Of a stretch of DNA of 64,000 bases, positions 4,762 to 27,705 are shown piece by piece. The translations under genes and the position numbers were made by a program. Source of the DNA: Candidatus Moraniibacteriota bacterium. GTDB taxonomy: Bacteria > Patescibacteriota > Minisyncoccia > Moranbacterales > UBA1568. Location of the stretch: positions 12,147 through 76,146 of the forward strand of contig JACPGV010000007.1 of NCBI GenBank assembly GCA_016182385.1. Direction: 5' to 3'. The first letter of the stretch is position 1. Each line of letters starts with the position of its first letter. The notes below the pieces were generated by a model. The model was not told the DNA's origin. It did not search any database and worked only from the letters and a program-made list of their open reading frames with translations.

Positions 4762-6000
4762 TTATTTTTTATACACTGGAAATCGTTTACAAAGACTTTT
4801 CACCTCTTTTCGGATGTTTCCCAATACTTTCTTGTCACCGTTTGAACGCAATGTCTCCTCAATAAAACCCGCGAGTATCTTCATTTCTTTTTCTTTCATC
4901 CCCCGTGTCGTGACAGCCGGCACACCGATACGCACACCCGAAGGGTCGAGCGGACCCCGTGGATCATCCGGAATGACGTTTTTGTTGATCGTAATCCCGA
5001 CTTCATCCAAAAGTTTTTCCGCTTCTTTGCCTGTGATTCCGTAACTCTTCACCGTATCGATGACCAACATATGATTTTCGGTCGTCCCACCAAAAAGAAT
5101 TATCACGCCACATTTGGCTAATTTTTTTTCAAGCGTTTTGGCATTTTTTAAAATCTGTCTGGCATATTTTTTGAAATCAGAACGAAGCGCTTCGCCAAAC
5201 GCTACGGCTTTCGCGGCGATTGTATGCATATGTGGGCCACCTTGCGTTCCCGGAAAAACCGCCTTATCGATCGCTTTGGCATACTGCTCGCGGCACAAAA
5301 TCAATCCCCCGCGCGGACCACGCAAAGTCTTGTGTGTCGTCGCCGTCACGATATCGAAATATGGTACCGGATTCGGAAGCACACCCCCGGCAACAAGACC
5401 AGCAATATGTGCCATATCCATCATCGAGAGCGCACCTACCTTTCTTGCGATTGCCGTAAATTTCTCATAATCGATCTGTCGCGTATACGAGGAAAACCCC
5501 GCGAGCATCAACTTCGGTTTCGTTTCTTTCGCTAATTTTTCCAATTTCTTATAATCAATCGTCCCGTCCGCTTCGGTCTTGTACCGAACGAAGTTATACA
5601 CTTTCGCCGGAAGCGTCACCGGATGCCCGTGCGTCAAATGTCCACCGTGCGAGAGATCCATCCCGAGCACCGTGTCATCTGGTTCGAGAAGCGCCGCATA
5701 AACGGCCAAGTTGGCCTGTGCCCCCGAATGTGGCTGGACATTCGCGTGTTCCGCGCCAAAAAGTTTTTTCGCCCGATCGATAGCCAAAGTCTCCACGACA
5801 TCCGTCCATTCCTGTCCGCCGTAATAACGCCGACCTGGATACCCTTCGGAATACTTGTTCGTAAAAACCGTCCCGAGCGCCTCGAGCACCGCTTTCGACA
5901 CGTAATTTTCCGATGCTATCATTTCCAGACCTTCTTCCTGTCGCTTCTCTTCACCAAGAATCGCGCGCCACACTTCTTTATCATTTTTTTTATGCGCCAT
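4762..6000 (-). CDS. glyA: serine hydroxymethyltransferase
   Basis: [11 protein letters not shown] and the PLP-lysine region ([12 protein letters not shown]) are present. Start chosen at MAHKK by alignment to canonical GlyA N-termini. Confidence 0.95.
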
Positions 6001-6077
6001 AAATAAAGCAAAAATATCCGTCATGGAGATTACAAATATATTTTTATCCTAGCAAAAAAAGCCACCCACCGCACCAT

Positions 6078-6106
6078 TGACAGAATGTCAAAAAAGGTGT
6101 ATAATT
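6078..6106 (+). promoter_or_regulatory. sigma70-type promoter TTGACA-17-TATAAT
   Basis: Exact consensus -35 and -10 hexamers with a 17-nt spacer, upstream of the GC-rich ORF. Confidence 0.5.
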
Positions 6107-6175
6107 AACGTTTCAGAATGCACCACATTCTGGGCATGTACCTGAACAATTTTTTTTTTTTGATCCGTAGAAGTT

Positions 6176-7177
6176 TTGCGGATCGATGAAGTTTTGCCCT
6201 GCGGCATCGGGCGTGAAGAAAGTAGGCGTACCAGCGCCTTCAAATCCAAACATTCCTGCGTGCCTGGCATTGCACGTGGGAAAAGGAATCAAATGAAAAA
6301 AGTAACAATTGAACGCGGCCGCACGGTTGCGTTTGAAGATCTTCCCGCAAGGTCGATCGCCCTGGACGGGTATTGTCAAGGACCCGATGTCGACGTTGAG
6401 AACCAGCGGTTCTCGTTTGACCACCATGACAAGTGCCTTCGTCTTGTGACGAAGGCCACTTGCGAACAGGTCCTGGATGCACTCCTCCTAGGGCTCGATC
6501 CGACCGCGTTCACGATTTTCGTGAACGATGTTGACGGCGACACCGTTCTTTCGGTGTGGTTACTCCGCAACTCAAAGCGGGCCGCCGAAAAAACGGTGCG
6601 AGAGCTGGTTGCAACCGTGGGCGGTATCGATGCTCACGGCCCGGCCTACCCGGCAATCGACAATGCTCTGGCGGAGAAATTCTTCCAGGGCGTTATGAAG
6701 CCCGAGCTCGATCTGCGGCGCACGAAACAGTACGCAACGTGCGATCTCCAGACGCTCCTCGAACAATGCGTCGAAAATATCGACGCGTTACTCGCGGGAA
6801 AAATCGAGCTCGCCTCGAAAATGGAGCGTCATTTTGAAACCACTCACTGCGGTAGCGGCTGGGTGATGGCAAAGTCGGACGACTTCATTTTCGATCTCTT
6901 GTACGCGGAGGGGTACACTCGTGCCATTGCGTACAAGATTCTTCCCGACGGATCAGTGAACTATACCGTCGGCAAGAAATCCGAGCTGGTCGGCAAATTT
7001 CCCGTCGGCCCCGGTTCCAAGGTGAACTCCATCCTCTACGCGCTCAATGAGCGGGAAACGGGATGGGGAGGCGGTTCAACGATCGGTGGCTCCCCGCGCA
7101 ATGCGGATGGTTCCCGATCACGCCTTACCCCCGACGAGGTTTTTGAAATCGTCGAGAGAGTGGTGATGGAGGGATAA
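6176..7177 (+). CDS. hypothetical protein; GC-rich, likely horizontally acquired
   Basis: ORF with visibly higher GC than its neighbours. Alternative ATG start at 6293. Contains DHH-like and GGGS motifs in a non-canonical order, so no confident family call. Confidence 0.55.
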   Translation: MRIDEVLPCGIGREESRRTSAFKSKHSCVPGIARGKRNQMKKVTIERGRTVAFEDLPARSIALDGYCQGPDVDVENQRFSFDHHDKCLRLVTKATCEQVLDALLLGLDPTAFTIFVNDVDGDTVLSVWLLRNSKRAAEKTVRELVATVGGIDAHGPAYPAIDNALAEKFFQGVMKPELDLRRTKQYATCDLQTLLEQCVENIDALLAGKIELASKMERHFETTHCGSGWVMAKSDDFIFDLLYAEGYTRAIAYKILPDGSVNYTVGKKSELVGKFPVGPGSKVNSILYALNERETGWGGGSTIGGSPRNADGSRSRLTPDEVFEIVERVVMEG

Positions 7178-7254
7178 ATAAAGTCACCACACCGCCCAAC
7201 CTATCGGCTAATCACGATAGTGACTAGTCGACTGATGAATTAAGGAACTCATTA

Positions 7255-7316
7255 CCGCCACGCGGATACCCTGCGCAACACGCATCGGTATCCCGGGGCG
7301 GTTTTCTTTTTTTTAA
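7255..7316 (+). terminator. rho-independent terminator
   Basis: Long GC hairpin ccgccacgcggatacc...ggtatcccggggcgg followed by a T-run. Confidence 0.6.
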
Positions 7317-7353
7317 TTTCATCCCCCACTCATTTTTTAATCAAAACCACTTA

Positions 7354-7380
7354 TCTTACTATTTTCGCGATTGCGTAAAT
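7354..7380. repeat. left arm of a perfect 27-bp inverted repeat
   Basis: tcttactattttcgcgattgcgtaaat. Its exact reverse complement lies at 8157-8183. Confidence 0.85.
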
Positions 7381-7441
7381 AGTAAGACTTTTATATACTC
7401 TAAATATAATATACTTTTCATCTATATAGACACGAAAAGAT

Positions 7442-8128
7442 ATGGCACGATCTACGAATCATACAAAGAAACAGGTGTCCCGCAATAAAAAGAAAGTTCA
7501 GCTCCCGAAAAAATTTCTCGAACGAGCGGATGATTTCCTGCTTTCCGATACGCTATCGGCTACAGCGACGAAGTTTTTCCTCGTTCTCCTTACTCTGGGT
7601 GGAGTAGCATTTCTCGGAGCAACAGTTCCTGGTCTCATAAAAGCTGCTGACATTTTCAGACATCGTCGAGGAAGCAGACGAAAAACTGACAATGATTTTT
7701 CAAAGCGATCGATTACCAATTCCATCGCCTACATGAAGAAGCATAAACTCGTCAAAATATTGAAAGATGCTCACGGTAAGACCACGATAGTCCTGACAAA
7801 CAAAGGAAGACGTCGGGTAGCGGAATATTCTCTCGAGATGGTAGAAATTAAGAAGCCGACGCGTTGGGACGGAAAATGGCGGGTGCTCATATTCGATATC
7901 CCATCCAATTCAAAAGTAAACACATATGCCCGTGATGCCTTGCGGAACAAAATCAAGGAACTCGGCTTCTGCCAAATCCAAAAAAGTGTCTGGGCTCATC
8001 CTTATGATTGTGAGAATGAAATCCTTTTCATTGCTGAAATGTTCGGGATACAGAAATATATAGAAATCCTCACTGTAGAACGGATGCTCCACGAAAAGTT
8101 AGTTCGTGAAAGATTTCCAAAACTTTAG
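7442..8128 (+). CDS. PaaX-like transcriptional regulator with an N-terminal TM helix
   Basis: Basic N-terminus, TM helix FFLVLLTLGGVAFLGATV, a winged-helix-like segment, and a C-terminal WDGKWRVLIFDIPSNSKVNTYARDALRNKIKELGFCQIQKSVWAHP resembling PaaX_C/Cas2-like folds. A TATAAT -10 element lies upstream. Confidence 0.5.
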   Translation: MARSTNHTKKQVSRNKKKVQLPKKFLERADDFLLSDTLSATATKFFLVLLTLGGVAFLGATVPGLIKAADIFRHRRGSRRKTDNDFSKRSITNSIAYMKKHKLVKILKDAHGKTTIVLTNKGRRRVAEYSLEMVEIKKPTRWDGKWRVLIFDIPSNSKVNTYARDALRNKIKELGFCQIQKSVWAHPYDCENEILFIAEMFGIQKYIEILTVERMLHEKLVRERFPKL

Positions 8129-8156
8129 ATTCTCAGTGTTTTAAAAAAATCTTACA

Positions 8157-8183
8157 ATTTACGCAATCGCGAAAATAGTAAGA
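8157..8183. repeat. right arm of the 27-bp inverted repeat
   Basis: atttacgcaatcgcgaaaatagtaaga is the exact reverse complement of 7354-7380. It lies between the convergent ends of the regulator gene and rfbD. Confidence 0.85.
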
Positions 8184-8212
8184 CTATAAACAAACTGATC
8201 GCAAACCAGGTC

Positions 8213-9097
8213 TTAAGAAAACAAAGACTCCGTACCTCCCTTCAAAAACTTCTCCAGCGCTTCTTGATACGGACGGAGCGGAATAAATTTGGTATTGCGG
8301 AGCGTCGAATATTTGGGTCGCTTGGCGGGGCGAGGAAATGCATCGGCTGAAACCGGTTTTACAACGATATCCATCTCCGCCAACCGGAACAATTCCTGTG
8401 CCGCCCCGTACCATGTCGCAACACCCTCGTTCACCAAATGATAGATACCGTACGGCTTCTGATACATCTCGAGCACCTTGCTCGCGAGCGCCAGATCCGG
8501 CGCGTACGTGAAACAACTCTTCTCGTCATCGACGACCGTCACTTCTTTTTTGTCCTTCGCCACTTCAAGCATTTTCTCGAAAAAACTCTTCTTCCCGACC
8601 GCGGACGACGCCGGCTTGCCGAACAATTTCGACAAACGAATAAGATAATATTTTTCACCTTCCGCAATGACGTTTTTCTCCCCTTCCCATTTGCTTCTGC
8701 CATACCGAGAGATCGGTCGCGGTTCGGCATCCTCGGCATAACCGTCCGCATTCTCGCCATCAAAGACATAGTCCGAAGAATAATGAACGAACGTCCTATC
8801 GAGCTCTTTTGCCAGTCGCGCAAGAAATCCCGGAACATCGGCATTGAGCTTGATCGCCTTCGCGTATTCCTCCTCGTTTTCCTCGCACTGATCAACCGCG
8901 TTGTACGCCACAGCGTTTATAATAACCGCTGGCGCATACTCGCGGATCTTTTTTTCCGCCACAGAAAAATCCGTAAGATCAATCTCCTCATAGTCCCAGC
9001 CCGCGACCTCATATCCTTCGTCCTCACGGTAAACACGCACGAGCTCCTGCCCGAGCATTCCCTTCGCTCCGAGAATCAAGACTTTCCTCTTTTCCAT
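8213..9097 (-). CDS. rfbD: dTDP-4-dehydrorhamnose reductase
   Basis: MEKRKVLILGAKGMLGQ Rossmann N-terminus. RmlD family by length and context. Confidence 0.9.
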   Translation of the reverse strand: MEKRKVLILGAKGMLGQELVRVYREDEGYEVAGWDYEEIDLTDFSVAEKKIREYAPAVIINAVAYNAVDQCEENEEEYAKAIKLNADVPGFLARLAKELDRTFVHYSSDYVFDGENADGYAEDAEPRPISRYGRSKWEGEKNVIAEGEKYYLIRLSKLFGKPASSAVGKKSFFEKMLEVAKDKKEVTVVDDEKSCFTYAPDLALASKVLEMYQKPYGIYHLVNEGVATWYGAAQELFRLAEMDIVVKPVSADAFPRPAKRPKYSTLRNTKFIPLRPYQEALEKFLKGGTESLFS

Positions 9098-10356: not shown

Positions 10357-10923
10357 TTAGTGTTCCTCGTTGTAAACAAATGCGTCAACAATCTCGCTCA
10401 AAGGTGGTGACGCCGCATCTTTCGAAGAAACTATCGGGGTGACATCTTTCGGCCAGGCGATATCCAAAGCCGGATCATTCCAAAGAATACCTCGATCCGA
10501 TTCTTTGTGATACAGGCCGGTCACTTTGTACGTGAAAATAGTATTATCGACAAGTGACATAAAGGCATGCGCGAATCCGGCCGGAATCCAGAATTGCTTA
10601 TGATTCACCCCTGAAAGTTCCACCATCACGTGCCTGCCGTATGTCGGCGAACCGACACGGATGTCTACCGCCACATCAAGCACGCGCCCACACAAAACTT
10701 GCACGAGTTTTCCTTGTTCAAAGGGCCTTGCCTGATAATGAAGCCCGCGCACGACGCCCCGTTTCGACTTGGAAACGTTGTCTTGGACGAAACGATCAGC
10801 CGGAATACCAAGTTTTTGGTATCGCTCCACGCTAAAAGATTCGAAAAAACAACCACGATCATCGATAAAAACTTCTGGCTGTAAAAGAACAGGTCCATCA
10901 ATAAAAAAGCGTTTTGTTTCCAT
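10357..10923 (-). CDS. rfbC: dTDP-4-dehydrorhamnose 3,5-epimerase
   Basis: RGLHYQ motif, cupin fold. Start chosen at METKRFF. Confidence 0.9.
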   Translation of the reverse strand: METKRFFIDGPVLLQPEVFIDDRGCFFESFSVERYQKLGIPADRFVQDNVSKSKRGVVRGLHYQARPFEQGKLVQVLCGRVLDVAVDIRVGSPTYGRHVMVELSGVNHKQFWIPAGFAHAFMSLVDNTIFTYKVTGLYHKESDRGILWNDPALDIAWPKDVTPIVSSKDAASPPLSEIVDAFVYNEEH

Positions 10924-11018
10924 AGCTTTCTCCTCCAAAAAATTACGGAATGGCATTATCCTATCACGCCACCCAAAAAAAACAAGACCCCGGAACAACC
11001 GGGGTCTTTCTGTATCAA

Positions 11019-11345
11019 TCAAATCTGGATGTCATTCATGACATCATCAAGAGTCTTTTTTTCCTCTGTCGCCGGACGCTCTTCACGTGGCGGACGCTCT
11101 GAACCTTCCGGTTCATTGATTTTCAAATTTACTCGGGCGTTGTTACGAGCACCAATAACACGCAAAAGTGTACGGAGCGCCTTGGCAGTCATACCCTCAC
11201 GGCCAATCACCATACCCATATCTTTTGGGTTCACATCAAGGGTAATCAACACTCCCATCTCATCAATCTTTCTTTCGACCTTCACATCATCCGGATTATC
11301 AACGAGCATTTTTACGACATACTCGATAAAATCCCTATCCTTCAT
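11019..11345 (-). CDS. KH-domain RNA-binding protein (KhpA-like)
   Basis: GMVIGREGMTAKALRTLLRV KH motif, with a charged C-terminal tail. Confidence 0.7.
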   Translation of the reverse strand: MKDRDFIEYVVKMLVDNPDDVKVERKIDEMGVLITLDVNPKDMGMVIGREGMTAKALRTLLRVIGARNNARVNLKINEPEGSERPPREERPATEEKKTLDDVMNDIQI

Positions 11346-11434
11346 ATTGTCTGTCATAAGACAAAACGTCACCGATTATCTGAATTAACCGAAGAAGTCT
11401 TCGCTCCCTCTATATTTGATTATACATTTTTTTT

Positions 11435-12373
11435 CTATACTGACAAGGTATTGTCAAGAAGAAGTTTCTGCCGGGAAAGATGAAAAAAATAGCCGATAAT
11501 AAAGAACGTGATGGCCGGAGCAAACCATTCGGGTATATGAAGGCCAAACGCATGACCCGTCATCACCAATCCGAGGAAAAAAATAGAATACATCGCTCCA
11601 TTTTTGAGAAATACATATTTTTTCACCCGATCGATATTAGAAATGGTTAATTGCCGCACTACCACGGCACCGATACCGTTACCGAGCAAAATAAGTGGTA
11701 CCGAAAGCGTAAAGGCGAACGCGCCAAGTACACCATCGATGGAAAAGCTCATATCAATCACTTCAAGAAAAAGGATTTTGCTGATATCAGACATGCCGCC
11801 ACTCATCAAACGACGTTCGGTTTCCTCGGCATGCTGACGAAATCCATGCGTGATAAAAAATGCCGTCGACCCGACTACCGCGCCAAAAGCAAGCATCGGG
11901 CTTTCTTTAAGAGCGTACCACACGATTACAGCAAGCGCGACCGAAACAAGAGCATAAAACCACGCTCCCTGATTGAGAAAAAAACATTCCGCGCGCAATC
12001 CGAAATGCTTGGGTTCGAGAAAAAGCCAGTGCAGAAAAAGAAATAAAAGAAACACTCCTCCCCCCAAAAGCAATATCGGTGCCGAGGATTGTATTGCCTG
12101 CCCCACCGCCGGATCATTGGAAAACGTCGCCAGAAACGAACCGACAAAACCGAGGTGTGGCACCGTCAAAAAGACGATGACCCATGGCAGGAGTCCGCGC
12201 ACGACGAACACCGCAAAAAAAATTCCCCATGTAATGAAAAAGCGACGCGCCTTCGCTCCCATCGTCGAAAGCACTTCGGCATTGATGACGGCATTATCGA
12301 TACTGGAAACGGTTTCAAACACCACCAGCCCGACAACAATAAACAACACAGAAAAAAAATCCATATCTTTCAA
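11435..12373 (-). CDS. TerC/DUF475-like integral membrane protein
   Basis: Multi-pass membrane protein with two SIDNA/SIDG repeats. Confidence 0.55.
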   Translation of the reverse strand: MKDMDFFSVLFIVVGLVVFETVSSIDNAVINAEVLSTMGAKARRFFITWGIFFAVFVVRGLLPWVIVFLTVPHLGFVGSFLATFSNDPAVGQAIQSSAPILLLGGGVFLLFLFLHWLFLEPKHFGLRAECFFLNQGAWFYALVSVALAVIVWYALKESPMLAFGAVVGSTAFFITHGFRQHAEETERRLMSGGMSDISKILFLEVIDMSFSIDGVLGAFAFTLSVPLILLGNGIGAVVVRQLTISNIDRVKKYVFLKNGAMYSIFFLGLVMTGHAFGLHIPEWFAPAITFFIIGYFFHLSRQKLLLDNTLSV

Positions 12374-26360: not shown

Positions 26361-27140
26361 TTATTTTTTATCCACATACACCGCTATTTCAAATGCCGCC
26401 TCAAGTGGTGGTCGTTTTTTTGTTTCCGCCTGTTGCTCAGGGGTATCAGTAACCGTCGACTCACCGGAACCAAAAGGAATAAAAGGATTGACTCCGTCTC
26501 CAAAAGAACGACCCGGACGGCCACTACTCTCTTCTTCATCATCGACATGGTGCATTTCTACGGAAAGCATATCCAGAGCAAATGGCAGCGTCTCTATCTT
26601 ATGCAGTAAAGTCACAATGTCAACATACTCTCCTCTCACAACAACAGTAATATGCAAATAACGATGAAACGGGAGATTGTCAATAATATTTTTTACATCT
26701 TTTTTCGTAGAAGACGGCGTATTCTCTTCGCCGATAGCTTCACGTGTTTCGGAAGATTTCTTCGGTTGATCGGGAGAGGCTACGATTTTTTTCTCAATAA
26801 TAGCTTTATCGCTTTTTGCTTCAATAATTATTTCAGTATTTGTTTCTTTGGCAAGTTGTTCAAGTGTTTTTACAAACGTCACGATACGATCTTCGGTCAA
26901 CATAATATCAAGCGTATTTTTTCCCGCCAAAATTTCATCGTATTGTTTTTCAAGCTCTGGCAACTTTTTAATTTGCCGATCACGATTTTCACGACTCGTA
27001 TAATATTTTTGAATATCATCTCTTTTATCAGATATTATTTGACGCAACGGTTTGATGCCAAACCACGCCACAAGTCCGATGAGCACGCATACTCCGACTA
27101 TAGAGAGACCAACTGTTTGTTTTTTGGAAAAAAATTTCAT
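26361..27140 (-). CDS. pilO: type IV pilus assembly protein PilO-like
   Basis: N-terminal TM anchor and coiled coil. Positioned after pilM and pilN. Confidence 0.55.
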   Translation of the reverse strand: MKFFSKKQTVGLSIVGVCVLIGLVAWFGIKPLRQIISDKRDDIQKYYTSRENRDRQIKKLPELEKQYDEILAGKNTLDIMLTEDRIVTFVKTLEQLAKETNTEIIIEAKSDKAIIEKKIVASPDQPKKSSETREAIGEENTPSSTKKDVKNIIDNLPFHRYLHITVVVRGEYVDIVTLLHKIETLPFALDMLSVEMHHVDDEEESSGRPGRSFGDGVNPFIPFGSGESTVTDTPEQQAETKKRPPLEAAFEIAVYVDKK

Positions 27141-27141
27141 A

Positions 27142-27705
27142 CTATTTATTTTTTCTGAGACATTCCATTTTTACGGAAAAATCCATTTCAAAATCAACAT
27201 TTTCCTGTGAAAAAAGATTCGAAATTGGCATATTAACATTCTCAACACAAGCGGCGCTTTTCAACCGGTGTTCAAACGAAAGAAGATCTTCGCGCTGTTT
27301 AGCCATACCGGATAACAAAACCGTATAATTTTTTGTTTGTATTGTATCCACAACAACACCTTCCGGTAACAACGCATCAAGCAAAATAAATACTTGCGTA
27401 AAATATAAGTGAAAATATTGAATTTTCCCTATCACGTCGGTTTTCTCGTTGGTTTCGCGAAAAGACATTTCGTATTCAGACAATTTCTTCTCTTGAGAGT
27501 ACATCGCTGTATCAATTCCGCTATCCACAGACTGATAACTTTTTAATTGAAAATCAAGAATAAAATAGATTCCAAAAAGAATACCAATATAAAAACATTC
27601 CAAAAGAAAAATCAAAAAAAGTTGCCATAACAAAAAACGAACGTGCAATCCTCGACGGATAATCGCTTTTTTTTCTTCTGGCAAAAGATTAAGCAAAGTC
27701 TTCAT
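27142..27705 (-). CDS. pilN: type IV pilus assembly protein PilN-like
   Basis: MKTLLNLLPEEKK (the INLLP motif) followed by a TM helix. Confidence 0.6.
   Translation of the reverse strand: MKTLLNLLPEEKKAIIRRGLHVRFLLWQLFLIFLLECFYIGILFGIYFILDFQLKSYQSVDSGIDTAMYSQEKKLSEYEMSFRETNEKTDVIGKIQYFHLYFTQVFILLDALLPEGVVVDTIQTKNYTVLLSGMAKQREDLLSFEHRLKSAACVENVNMPISNLFSQENVDFEMDFSVKMECLRKNK

Follow-up and report, generated by a model that had tools for sequence, protein, structure and literature searches.

What does a GC-rich gene of no described family do behind glyA in the genome of a Candidatus Moraniibacteriota bacterium, and by which signals is it expressed? The gene lies in the window, as we call the whole stretch of 64,000 nucleotides analysed here (contig JACPGV010000007.1 of assembly GCA_016182385.1, positions 12,147 to 76,146; all coordinates below are those of the window). 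An initial annotation had described it as a foreign gene with a promoter and a terminator of its own, in an accessory island of unknown function. Almost certainly, about 1.1 kb of foreign DNA has been inserted into a native slot between the conserved one-carbon gene glyA and the conserved sugar gene rmlD. The gene product, a protein of 294 residues, has a predicted DHH/DHHA1 fold. With about even confidence, we regard it as a metal-dependent phosphodiesterase that was acquired by horizontal transfer, is strongly expressed, and has oligoadenylates, cyclic or linear, as its probable substrates.

The coding sequence occupies 6293..7177 on the + strand. Its true start is ATG 6293, as 48 homologues align from MKKVTIERG onward. 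The end at 7177 had been given correctly, and the alternative start at TTG 6176, which gives a longer open reading frame (ORF) of 333 residues, is ruled out by the homologue alignment; the N-terminal extensions of longer homologues are unrelated. The gene has the highest G+C content (GC) in the window, 56.2% versus 44.8 ± 3.2% over 50 long ORFs (z = 3.5), and also the highest GC at third codon positions (65.8% versus 43.4 ± 5.8%, z = 3.9), which bears out the earlier impression that it exceeds the surrounding genes in GC. Together with a PaaX-like gene downstream, it is almost the sole + strand gene in its stretch. The protein is identical to a database entry annotated as a hypothetical protein of a 'Candidatus Moranbacteria bacterium' metagenome-assembled genome (MAG), and the same sequence was recovered from two further independent assemblies. 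A second deviant patch of the window (26361-27705, - strand) consists of two adjacent low-GC genes, with 39.2% and 33.3% GC (z = -1.7 and -3.5).

The foreign origin of the gene is also seen in the synteny of relatives. We mapped the window proteins onto 80 metagenomic loci around close GlyA homologues. Relatives with a 72-83% identical GlyA keep the order TerC-KH-RmlC-RmlB-RmlD-GlyA-RmlA-NTP-transferase, and the gap between RmlD and GlyA measures 48-100 nt in six loci (L099, L101, L102, L103, L108, and L110) and 2188 nt in the window. Homologues of the DHH-like and PaaX-like proteins were found in none of the syntenic relatives, even at E 0.01. The accessory island of about 2 kb proposed after glyA is thus real, as RmlD adjoins GlyA in relatives that have neither gene, and the DHH-like gene combines deviant composition with absence from syntenic relatives, as a horizontally acquired islet does.

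The gap is not empty in every relative. Five loci (L094, L095, L097, L141, and L100) carry 400-800 nt there, with differing small membrane- or secreted-protein genes on the strand opposite glyA, and these unrelated cargo genes are preceded by the same promoter, ...CCGCACCATTGACA-17-TATAAT. In the window, the promoter scan places this sigma-70 promoter at 6077..6105 on the + strand, divergent from glyA, with the -35 element TTGACA at 6077-6082, a 17-nt spacer, and the -10 element TATAAT at 6100-6105. The match to the consensus is 12/12, as had been claimed, at coordinates one base below those first given (6078-6106). The perfect TTGACA-N17-TATAAT occurs once in the 64 kb, and when one mismatch is allowed there are two sites versus 0.33 expected. 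The -35 element, the end of the spacer, and the -10 element are kept in 7 related loci, two of them without a downstream gene. In L113 (6795-7000) and L096 (about 6840-7000, reverse strand), the perfect promoter is kept without a gene and reads about 20-40 nt into the rmlD terminator hairpin; such a geneless promoter could yield a tiny RNA or could be kept for an effect on the divergent glyA promoter.

The homology to relatives continues into the transcript. A 5' stem-loop at 6108..6139 (+ strand, RNA fold) has the core CAGAATG/CATTCTG and stands at the same position in relatives, where the arms differ yet stay complementary when compared by eye without scoring (TTCAGAAT/ATTCTGAA, TTCCAGA/TCTGGAA, and TTCGGA/TCCGAA). 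The end of the native leader (6138..6168, + strand, GC 35%) was delimited from alignment A2 and the raw sequences, and consists of a GTACCTGAACAA box, the T12 homopolymer, and TTGATCCG. The homopolymer had been noticed before and is read directly at 6150-6161. The GTACCTGAACAA box also lies ahead of the cargo genes of the same five relatives, and in L095 it is followed by ...CCGGAGGGATTGATCCGG. A CCGGAGGGATTGATCCGG hairpin just 5' of the ribosome-binding site is common to L094, L095, L141, and L100. The homology between the window and its relatives ends at about 6168 (TTGATCCG).

At the other end, an intrinsic terminator at 7255..7315 on the + strand comprises a long, interrupted, GC-clamped hairpin (7255-7301) and a T-tract, TTTTCTTTTTTTT, at 7302-7314. 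The long hairpin terminator predicted earlier is thus well supported (-29.9 kcal/mol, z = -4.9 versus shuffles), and it was missed by a simple terminator scanner because the stem is long and interrupted. Alignment with L094, L095, and L097 shows a terminator of the same sequence family behind their cargo, CCGCC..GGATAC...GTATCC..GGGGCGGTTTTT, a signature that can also be written CCGCC..GGATAC..GTATCC..GGCGGTTTTT. The slot was compared over window positions 6025-6168 and 7251-7316, L094 6244-7000, L095 6195-7000, L097 6406-7000, L141 6303-7000, and L100 about 290-560.

Since promoter, leader, and terminator are conserved around other cargo, the foreign DNA is confined to about 6169-7250, and the idea that the gene arrived with its own promoter and terminator does not hold: both are native. 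Composition changes at the same borders, with 35% GC in the native leader, 52-56% in the insert, and 27% in the spacer after the terminator. The insert begins with a distal leader (6169..6292, + strand), which is foreign, has 52% GC, forms hairpins, and ends in an AAGGA ribosome-binding site 8 nt ahead of ATG 6293. It closes with a 3' untranslated stretch (7178..7250, + strand), which folds into a small hairpin at about 7204-7231, lacks a counterpart in relatives, and probably belongs to the imported DNA. We consider it very probable that an expression slot was already in place here and that this segment took the position of its former cargo. With such a swap, the imported gene is transcribed from the native promoter and stopped by the native terminator.

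Neither an integrase nor a transposase gene is present between glyA and rmlD, and direct repeats of the kind left by target-site duplication were not detected around 6169-7250; the one inverted repeat brackets only the PaaX-like gene. The arrangement recalls integron-like variable slots in having a conserved promoter, leader, and terminator around exchangeable cargo, a resemblance that is purely descriptive. It differs from them in that neither an integrase nor attC-like sites could be identified and each genome holds one cargo gene.

A riboswitch or other described RNA in the 187-nt leader was considered and found unsupported, with no Rfam match on the + strand at E ≤ 10. The fold of the whole leader has z = -2.6. 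Over the whole window, nothing reached the Rfam gathering score. When the leader and trailer were compared by nhmmer with 79 homologous loci, there was no match, and the leaders of the closest homologues are unrelated to that of the window.

The initial annotation had recognised no family in the protein, and none emerged from database searches. Neither the 294- nor the 333-residue version matched a Pfam family at E ≤ 1, NCBIfam and PHROGs returned nothing for the window protein, the PADLOC profiles of Cas and accessory proteins gave no match at E ≤ 1, and PDB sequences were hit neither by phmmer nor by hmmsearch with the family profile. The protein nevertheless belongs to a large family, which comprises 747 clusters at 90% identity and 815 representatives at 50% identity with E ≤ 1e-3, 580 of them with E ≤ 1e-10. 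The window protein shares 50-69% identity with members from different phyla. Among GTDB species representatives, the family occurs in Patescibacteria, Sericytochromatia, Frankia, many Myxococcota, one Elusimicrobia MAG, and one Methanosarcinales MAG.

Three motifs are conserved family-wide: FDHH(D) at residues 42-46, NDVDGD at 78-83, and GWGGGS at 257-262. In an alignment of 20 diverse members, which takes in phage, archaeal, Frankia, and fusion proteins, 19 columns are invariant (D25, G26, G30, F42, H44, H45, R50, Q59, N78, D81, D83, D113, S230, E255, W258, G259, G260, G266, and P268), and D34, D43, D79, K228, and R269 are nearly so. Several members are much longer. P0153 (873 residues), P0157 (962 residues), P0166 (933 residues), P0205, P0234, and P0255 have N-terminal extensions of 290-650 residues, and these extensions and that of P0247 have no Pfam or PADLOC match. 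By eye only, a Lon-protease-like motif, GDS..ALA...TG...K, was noticed at the start of P0153 and P0157, with helical repeats after it. P0247 (601 residues) appears to be a tandem duplication, with a degenerate copy of the N-terminal half (..NIFVRHCDPDIALSVWLLKNH..) ahead of a complete copy.

The fold of the protein offers a first clue to its activity. The AlphaFold2 model, built from 49 sequences, has two alpha/beta domains with a mean predicted local distance difference test score of 95 and a predicted template modelling score of 0.89. All four Foldseek matches in the PDB below E 1e-3 are DHH/DHHA1 phosphodiesterases, including PAP phosphatase (8a8k), NrN (9lqc), and TM1595; the NrN structures 9lq9 and 9lqc are both among the fold matches, and NrnA and Rv2837c also belong to the closest solved folds. 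In a viral fold library, the best named match is a phage 'DHH superfamily phosphohydrolase'. The model thus has both a DHH and a DHHA1 domain, although its identity to solved DHH structures is only 9-16%. We consider it very probable that the protein is a DHH/DHHA1-fold hydrolase.

In canonical DHH proteins, the motifs follow the order I (DxD), II (D), III (DHH), and IV (D), with GGGH in the DHHA1 domain. The DHH-like, DxDGD, and GGGS motifs of the window protein had been described as standing in a non-canonical order, and the order is indeed different: compared with NrnA-type DHH enzymes, the DHH triad (43-45) precedes the DxDxD cluster (79-83), and GWGGGS..GGxPR replaces GGGH. In the model, the acidic and His residues come after strands 21-24, 32-34, 39-42, and 74-77 and close helix 100-115. 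The placement of D25, D43-H44-H45, N78, D79, D81, D83, and D113 at the C-terminal ends of strands suggests the two-metal-site layout of DHH phosphoesterases, and the invariant C-terminal loop GWGGGSxxGGxPR may be the counterpart of the substrate-binding GGGH loop of DHHA1. If the model is correct in this respect, the protein would be a catalytically competent, highly divergent DHH/DHHA1-fold phosphoesterase. With its rearranged motif order and no remaining profile similarity, the family escapes all sequence annotation.

The genomic contexts of relatives narrow the function further. In other lineages, the family is repeatedly linked to signalling genes of type III clustered regularly interspaced short palindromic repeat (CRISPR) systems, and the function left blank in the initial annotation can be narrowed to that extent. 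In Frankia, the gene has a divergent CARF-HEPN gene (PADLOC CARF_m11, score 1279) on one side and cas10 (3e-96) on the other, and cas10 is followed by Cas7/Cas5-type III-D fusions; this arrangement was seen in at least 6 loci, with CRISPR arrays nearby in 4. The high-GC Frankia and Myxococcota contexts were taken from tblastn and PADLOC matches; longest-ORF calling is unreliable in these loci because of shadow ORFs (clusters C1 and C6). In the Sericytochromatia locus L072, a CRISPR array of 16 repeats comes after the gene, and cas1 after the array. Near these, in the same 27%-GC genome, lies a gene for a patatin-like phospholipase (1801-2994, - strand) with a weak PADLOC 'Effector, Phospholipase' match and an N-terminal GGxxxG.

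Among Patescibacteria, the Paceibacterota locus L089, whose protein is 61% identical to that of the window, has a gene for an AAA protein of the Csx3-AAA family (5e-47) 9 nt after the DHH-like gene and a Csx3 gene (4e-20) 2.4 kb downstream of it, and in L077 (35% identical) the order is AAA, Csx3, and then the DHH-like gene. In the Chloroherpetonaceae locus L174, a reverse transcriptase-Cas1 fusion (RT-Cas1), a CARF protein (7e-69), and Card1 are encoded just upstream. Adjacency to cas10 or to effectors of cyclic oligoadenylate (cOA) signalling thus recurs in five independent lineages (Frankia, Sericytochromatia, two Patescibacteria, and Chloroherpetonaceae), all of them with relatives of the window copy. 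An operon partner conserved across phyla was not found: neighbour clustering in the 79 loci gave lineage-specific partners only. The upstream genes of L072 and L174, of about 400 and 305 residues, were considered as a shared partner and rejected, as they are not homologous.

The closest physical link is a fusion protein, P0198, in which residues 7-400 form a Csx1/Csm6 CARF-HEPN effector (2.8e-92) and residues 418-705 a DHH-like domain with intact motifs. It was assembled on 5 contigs and adjoins a CARF-RelE gene (4.6e-86) and a Cas_NE0113 gene. P0198 matches the PADLOC architectures CARF_HEPN_CSX16, CARF_HEPN_CSX20, and CARF_HEPN_CSX3. These architectures carry a ring nuclease at the C-terminus, and the DHH-like domain of P0198 therefore takes the ring-nuclease position in a cOA-sensing effector. 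Two further features accompany the fusion locus L181. Between CARF-RelE and Cas_NE0113, beside the fusion, positions 10400-11500 hold tandemly duplicated small ORFs, each about 31-37 codons long, with repeat units of 212 and about 745 nt; these repeats do not form a CRISPR array. A 1245-residue protein encoded three genes downstream of the fusion (5261-8998) matches only RNA_pol_Rpb2_6 in Pfam and nothing in PADLOC.

The family is also found on mobile elements. Homologues occur on 7 IMG/VR contigs that measure 131-409 kb and are densely packed with small ORFs, and on two further phage- or integrase-bearing contigs (L176 and L178). In L003, L021, L068, L071, and Frankia, the GC of the gene is 8-14 points above that of its own locus. 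In two unrelated contigs of the candidate phyla radiation, the DHH-like gene is preceded, at a distance of about 200-300 nt, by a tRNA-Thr gene (L005 5654-5726 and L092 1765-1920), which suggests insertion at a tRNA-Thr site.

Taken with the fold, these contexts would be explained by an Mn2+- or Co2+-dependent phosphodiesterase of two domains, with a DHH-type two-metal site, that acts on short adenylate nucleotides. The most likely substrates would be the cyclic oligoadenylates of type III CRISPR systems or their linear products, since relatives adjoin Cas10, CARF-HEPN, Card1, Csx3, and CRISPR arrays, are fused to Csx1, and occur in large phages. We propose a substrate in oligoadenylate signalling somewhat more cautiously than the overall assignment, at slightly below even confidence. 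More tentatively still, and as a possibility for which we claim distinctly less than even confidence, the family, with about 800 clusters, may consist of hitherto unrecognised enzymes that switch type III CRISPR systems off, as ring nucleases or oligoadenylate phosphodiesterases with a DHH fold and a need for metal. They would be used beside CARF effectors and Cas10, once fused to Csx1, and large phages would carry them as an anti-CRISPR, while stand-alone copies would act in trans or on signals made elsewhere. The orphan copy in the window would presumably do the same job as its CRISPR-linked relatives.

There are precedents for such a reading. The Csx1-Crn2 fusion is an established self-limiting effector (PMC11317161), and Crn4 was predicted from adjacency, fusion, and presence on mobile elements before it was confirmed as a ring nuclease (PMC12830947). 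Crn1, Crn2/AcrIII-1, Crn3/Csx3, Csx15/16/20, and Crn4 resemble the window family in effector adjacency, Csx1 fusion, and stand-alone and phage copies (PMC12409355, PMC12830947). The window family differs from these ring nucleases in its unrelated fold, its size, which is about twice theirs or more, and a probable metal dependence suggested by the DHH-type site. It is absent from the families of the 2025 ring-nuclease survey (PMC12409355), no comparable DHH-fold ring nuclease appears in the 2025 surveys consulted, and with no PADLOC match at E ≤ 1 its sequence falls in none of the described families (Crn1-4, Csx15/16/20, and NrN).

Two DHH-fold enzymes come nearer in structure: NrN, the phosphodiesterase of S-adenosyl methionine-AMP (SAM-AMP) in CorA-type III-B systems (PMC10600005), and MAD, a membrane-associated DHH-DHHA1 degrader of cyclic tetra-adenylate (cA4) in Sulfolobus (PMC8284326). 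Both switch off type III nucleotide signals (PMC10600005; PMC8284326), as is proposed here, but the window family has no CorA neighbour or fusion among the loci seen, no membrane anchor, and no sequence similarity to them. The partners of the window family, namely CARF-HEPN/Csx1, Card1, Csx3, and III-D Cas10, point to cOA rather than SAM-AMP.

Several observations weigh against an oligoadenylate phosphodiesterase. The 64-kb window contains no CRISPR array and no homologue of Cas10, CARF, Csx3, or Cas1. Most family members stand alone in unrelated contexts, such as Myxococcota, where the gene lies beside those for a thioredoxin and a membrane protein, and the loci L175, L177, L179, and L180; the CRISPR association itself was counted on a few dozen loci without a background comparison. 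Nor does sequence connect the family with NrnA, PAP phosphatase, TM1595, GdpP, or PggH (PF01368 and PF02272): neither Pfam family was matched, the PDB profile search was negative, and hhalign of the 49-sequence alignment with NrnA (B. subtilis and S. aureus), SH1221, and TM1595 gave a probability of 0.09 and E 0.6, a weak test because the reference alignment holds only 4 sequences. Since the conserved D25, D43-H44-H45, N78-D79-x-D81-x-D83, D113, and GWGGGS..GGxPR do not follow the canonical order I-IV, the active-site assignment rests on the predicted model.

The main alternative is a general nanoRNase/pAp phosphatase, a functional analogue of NrnA with a housekeeping role in removing pAp or short pieces of RNA, for which the proximity to CRISPR and phage genes would be incidental or reflect downstream clean-up. 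The fold fits this reading equally well, with PAP phosphatase 8a8k, NrnA, TM1595, and Rv2837c among the closest solved structures, and the prevalence of stand-alone chromosomal copies and the strong, constitutive-looking promoter of the window copy are also in its favour. It sits poorly with a patchy, horizontally mobile gene that is absent at the locus in all close relatives, and a housekeeping enzyme would not be expected to be fused to Csx1 or to be placed between a CARF effector and cas10 in the type III-D operons of Frankia. We therefore consider it unlikely, though a serious competitor to the oligoadenylate phosphodiesterase.

Two other explanations are less probable. A RecJ/Cdc45-like role, as an exonuclease on single-stranded nucleic acid or as a scaffold in DNA repair or replication, draws attention through a uvr gene next to the family member in one lineage; in that lineage a Csx3-type AAA protein is encoded on the other side, and no other repair context appeared among the loci examined. 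The protein, at 294 residues, also has none of the additional domains (OB, CID, and C-terminal) found in RecJ and Cdc45. We consider this role improbable. The gene could instead be a silent or decaying passenger that happened to insert behind a resident promoter and serves no function for its host. Such a passenger could well be an orphan without partner genes whose GC has not ameliorated, and the cargo of the slot, different in each relative, suggests rapid turnover. Its frame is intact, however, with 37 of the 37 family-invariant residues of alignment A1 present; a good ribosome-binding site, a consensus promoter, and a terminator serve it, and the identical copies come from independent assemblies. 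We regard a functionless passenger as very improbable, and slightly more so than the repair role.

The second accessory gene of the insertion encodes a PaaX-like protein of 228 residues (7442..8128, + strand) with a PaaX_M (Cas2-like) domain (Pfam PF20803, 1.8e-19), and it too is absent here in all relatives. As the initial annotation proposed for this regulator, the gene is bracketed by an inverted repeat, whose 42-nt arms (7354-7395 and 8142-8183) are 93% complementary. The core of the repeat is itself a palindrome, TCTTACWATTT-N12-AAATWGTAAGA. Its left copy, TCTTACTATTT-N12-AAATAGTAAGA at 7354..7387, overlaps the -35 region of a putative, TATAAT-containing promoter of the PaaX-like gene and may double as an operator. 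The right copy, at 8150..8183, is probably the rmlD terminator, as it starts 30 nt past the rmlD stop and, read on the - strand, runs into a T7 tract. A genome-wide element of the repetitive extragenic palindromic (REP) type is not supported, since the palindrome occurs only twice in the 64 kb, both times beside the PaaX-like gene. In L094, which lacks the PaaX-like gene, a single similar palindrome directly follows rmlD; therefore, the PaaX-like gene seems to have entered at a resident hairpin and duplicated it in inverted form. The inverted repeat could serve as an operator, a terminator, or a recombination site.

For the organism, these results describe a native slot of promoter, leader, and terminator that carries different cargo in each close relative. 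A native slot with foreign cargo implies that compositional islands need not bring their own expression signals. For the protein family, they illustrate how far the DHH fold can drift. If the proposed function is correct, a widespread and wholly unannotated family of about 815 clusters at 50% identity, which ranges over Patescibacteria, Myxococcota, Frankia, non-photosynthetic Cyanobacteria, Chlorobi-like bacteria, an archaeon, and large phages, would gain a testable function. The enzymes that end cyclic-oligoadenylate signalling would then include a further class, distinct in structure and dependent on metal, and phages would have one more candidate anti-CRISPR.

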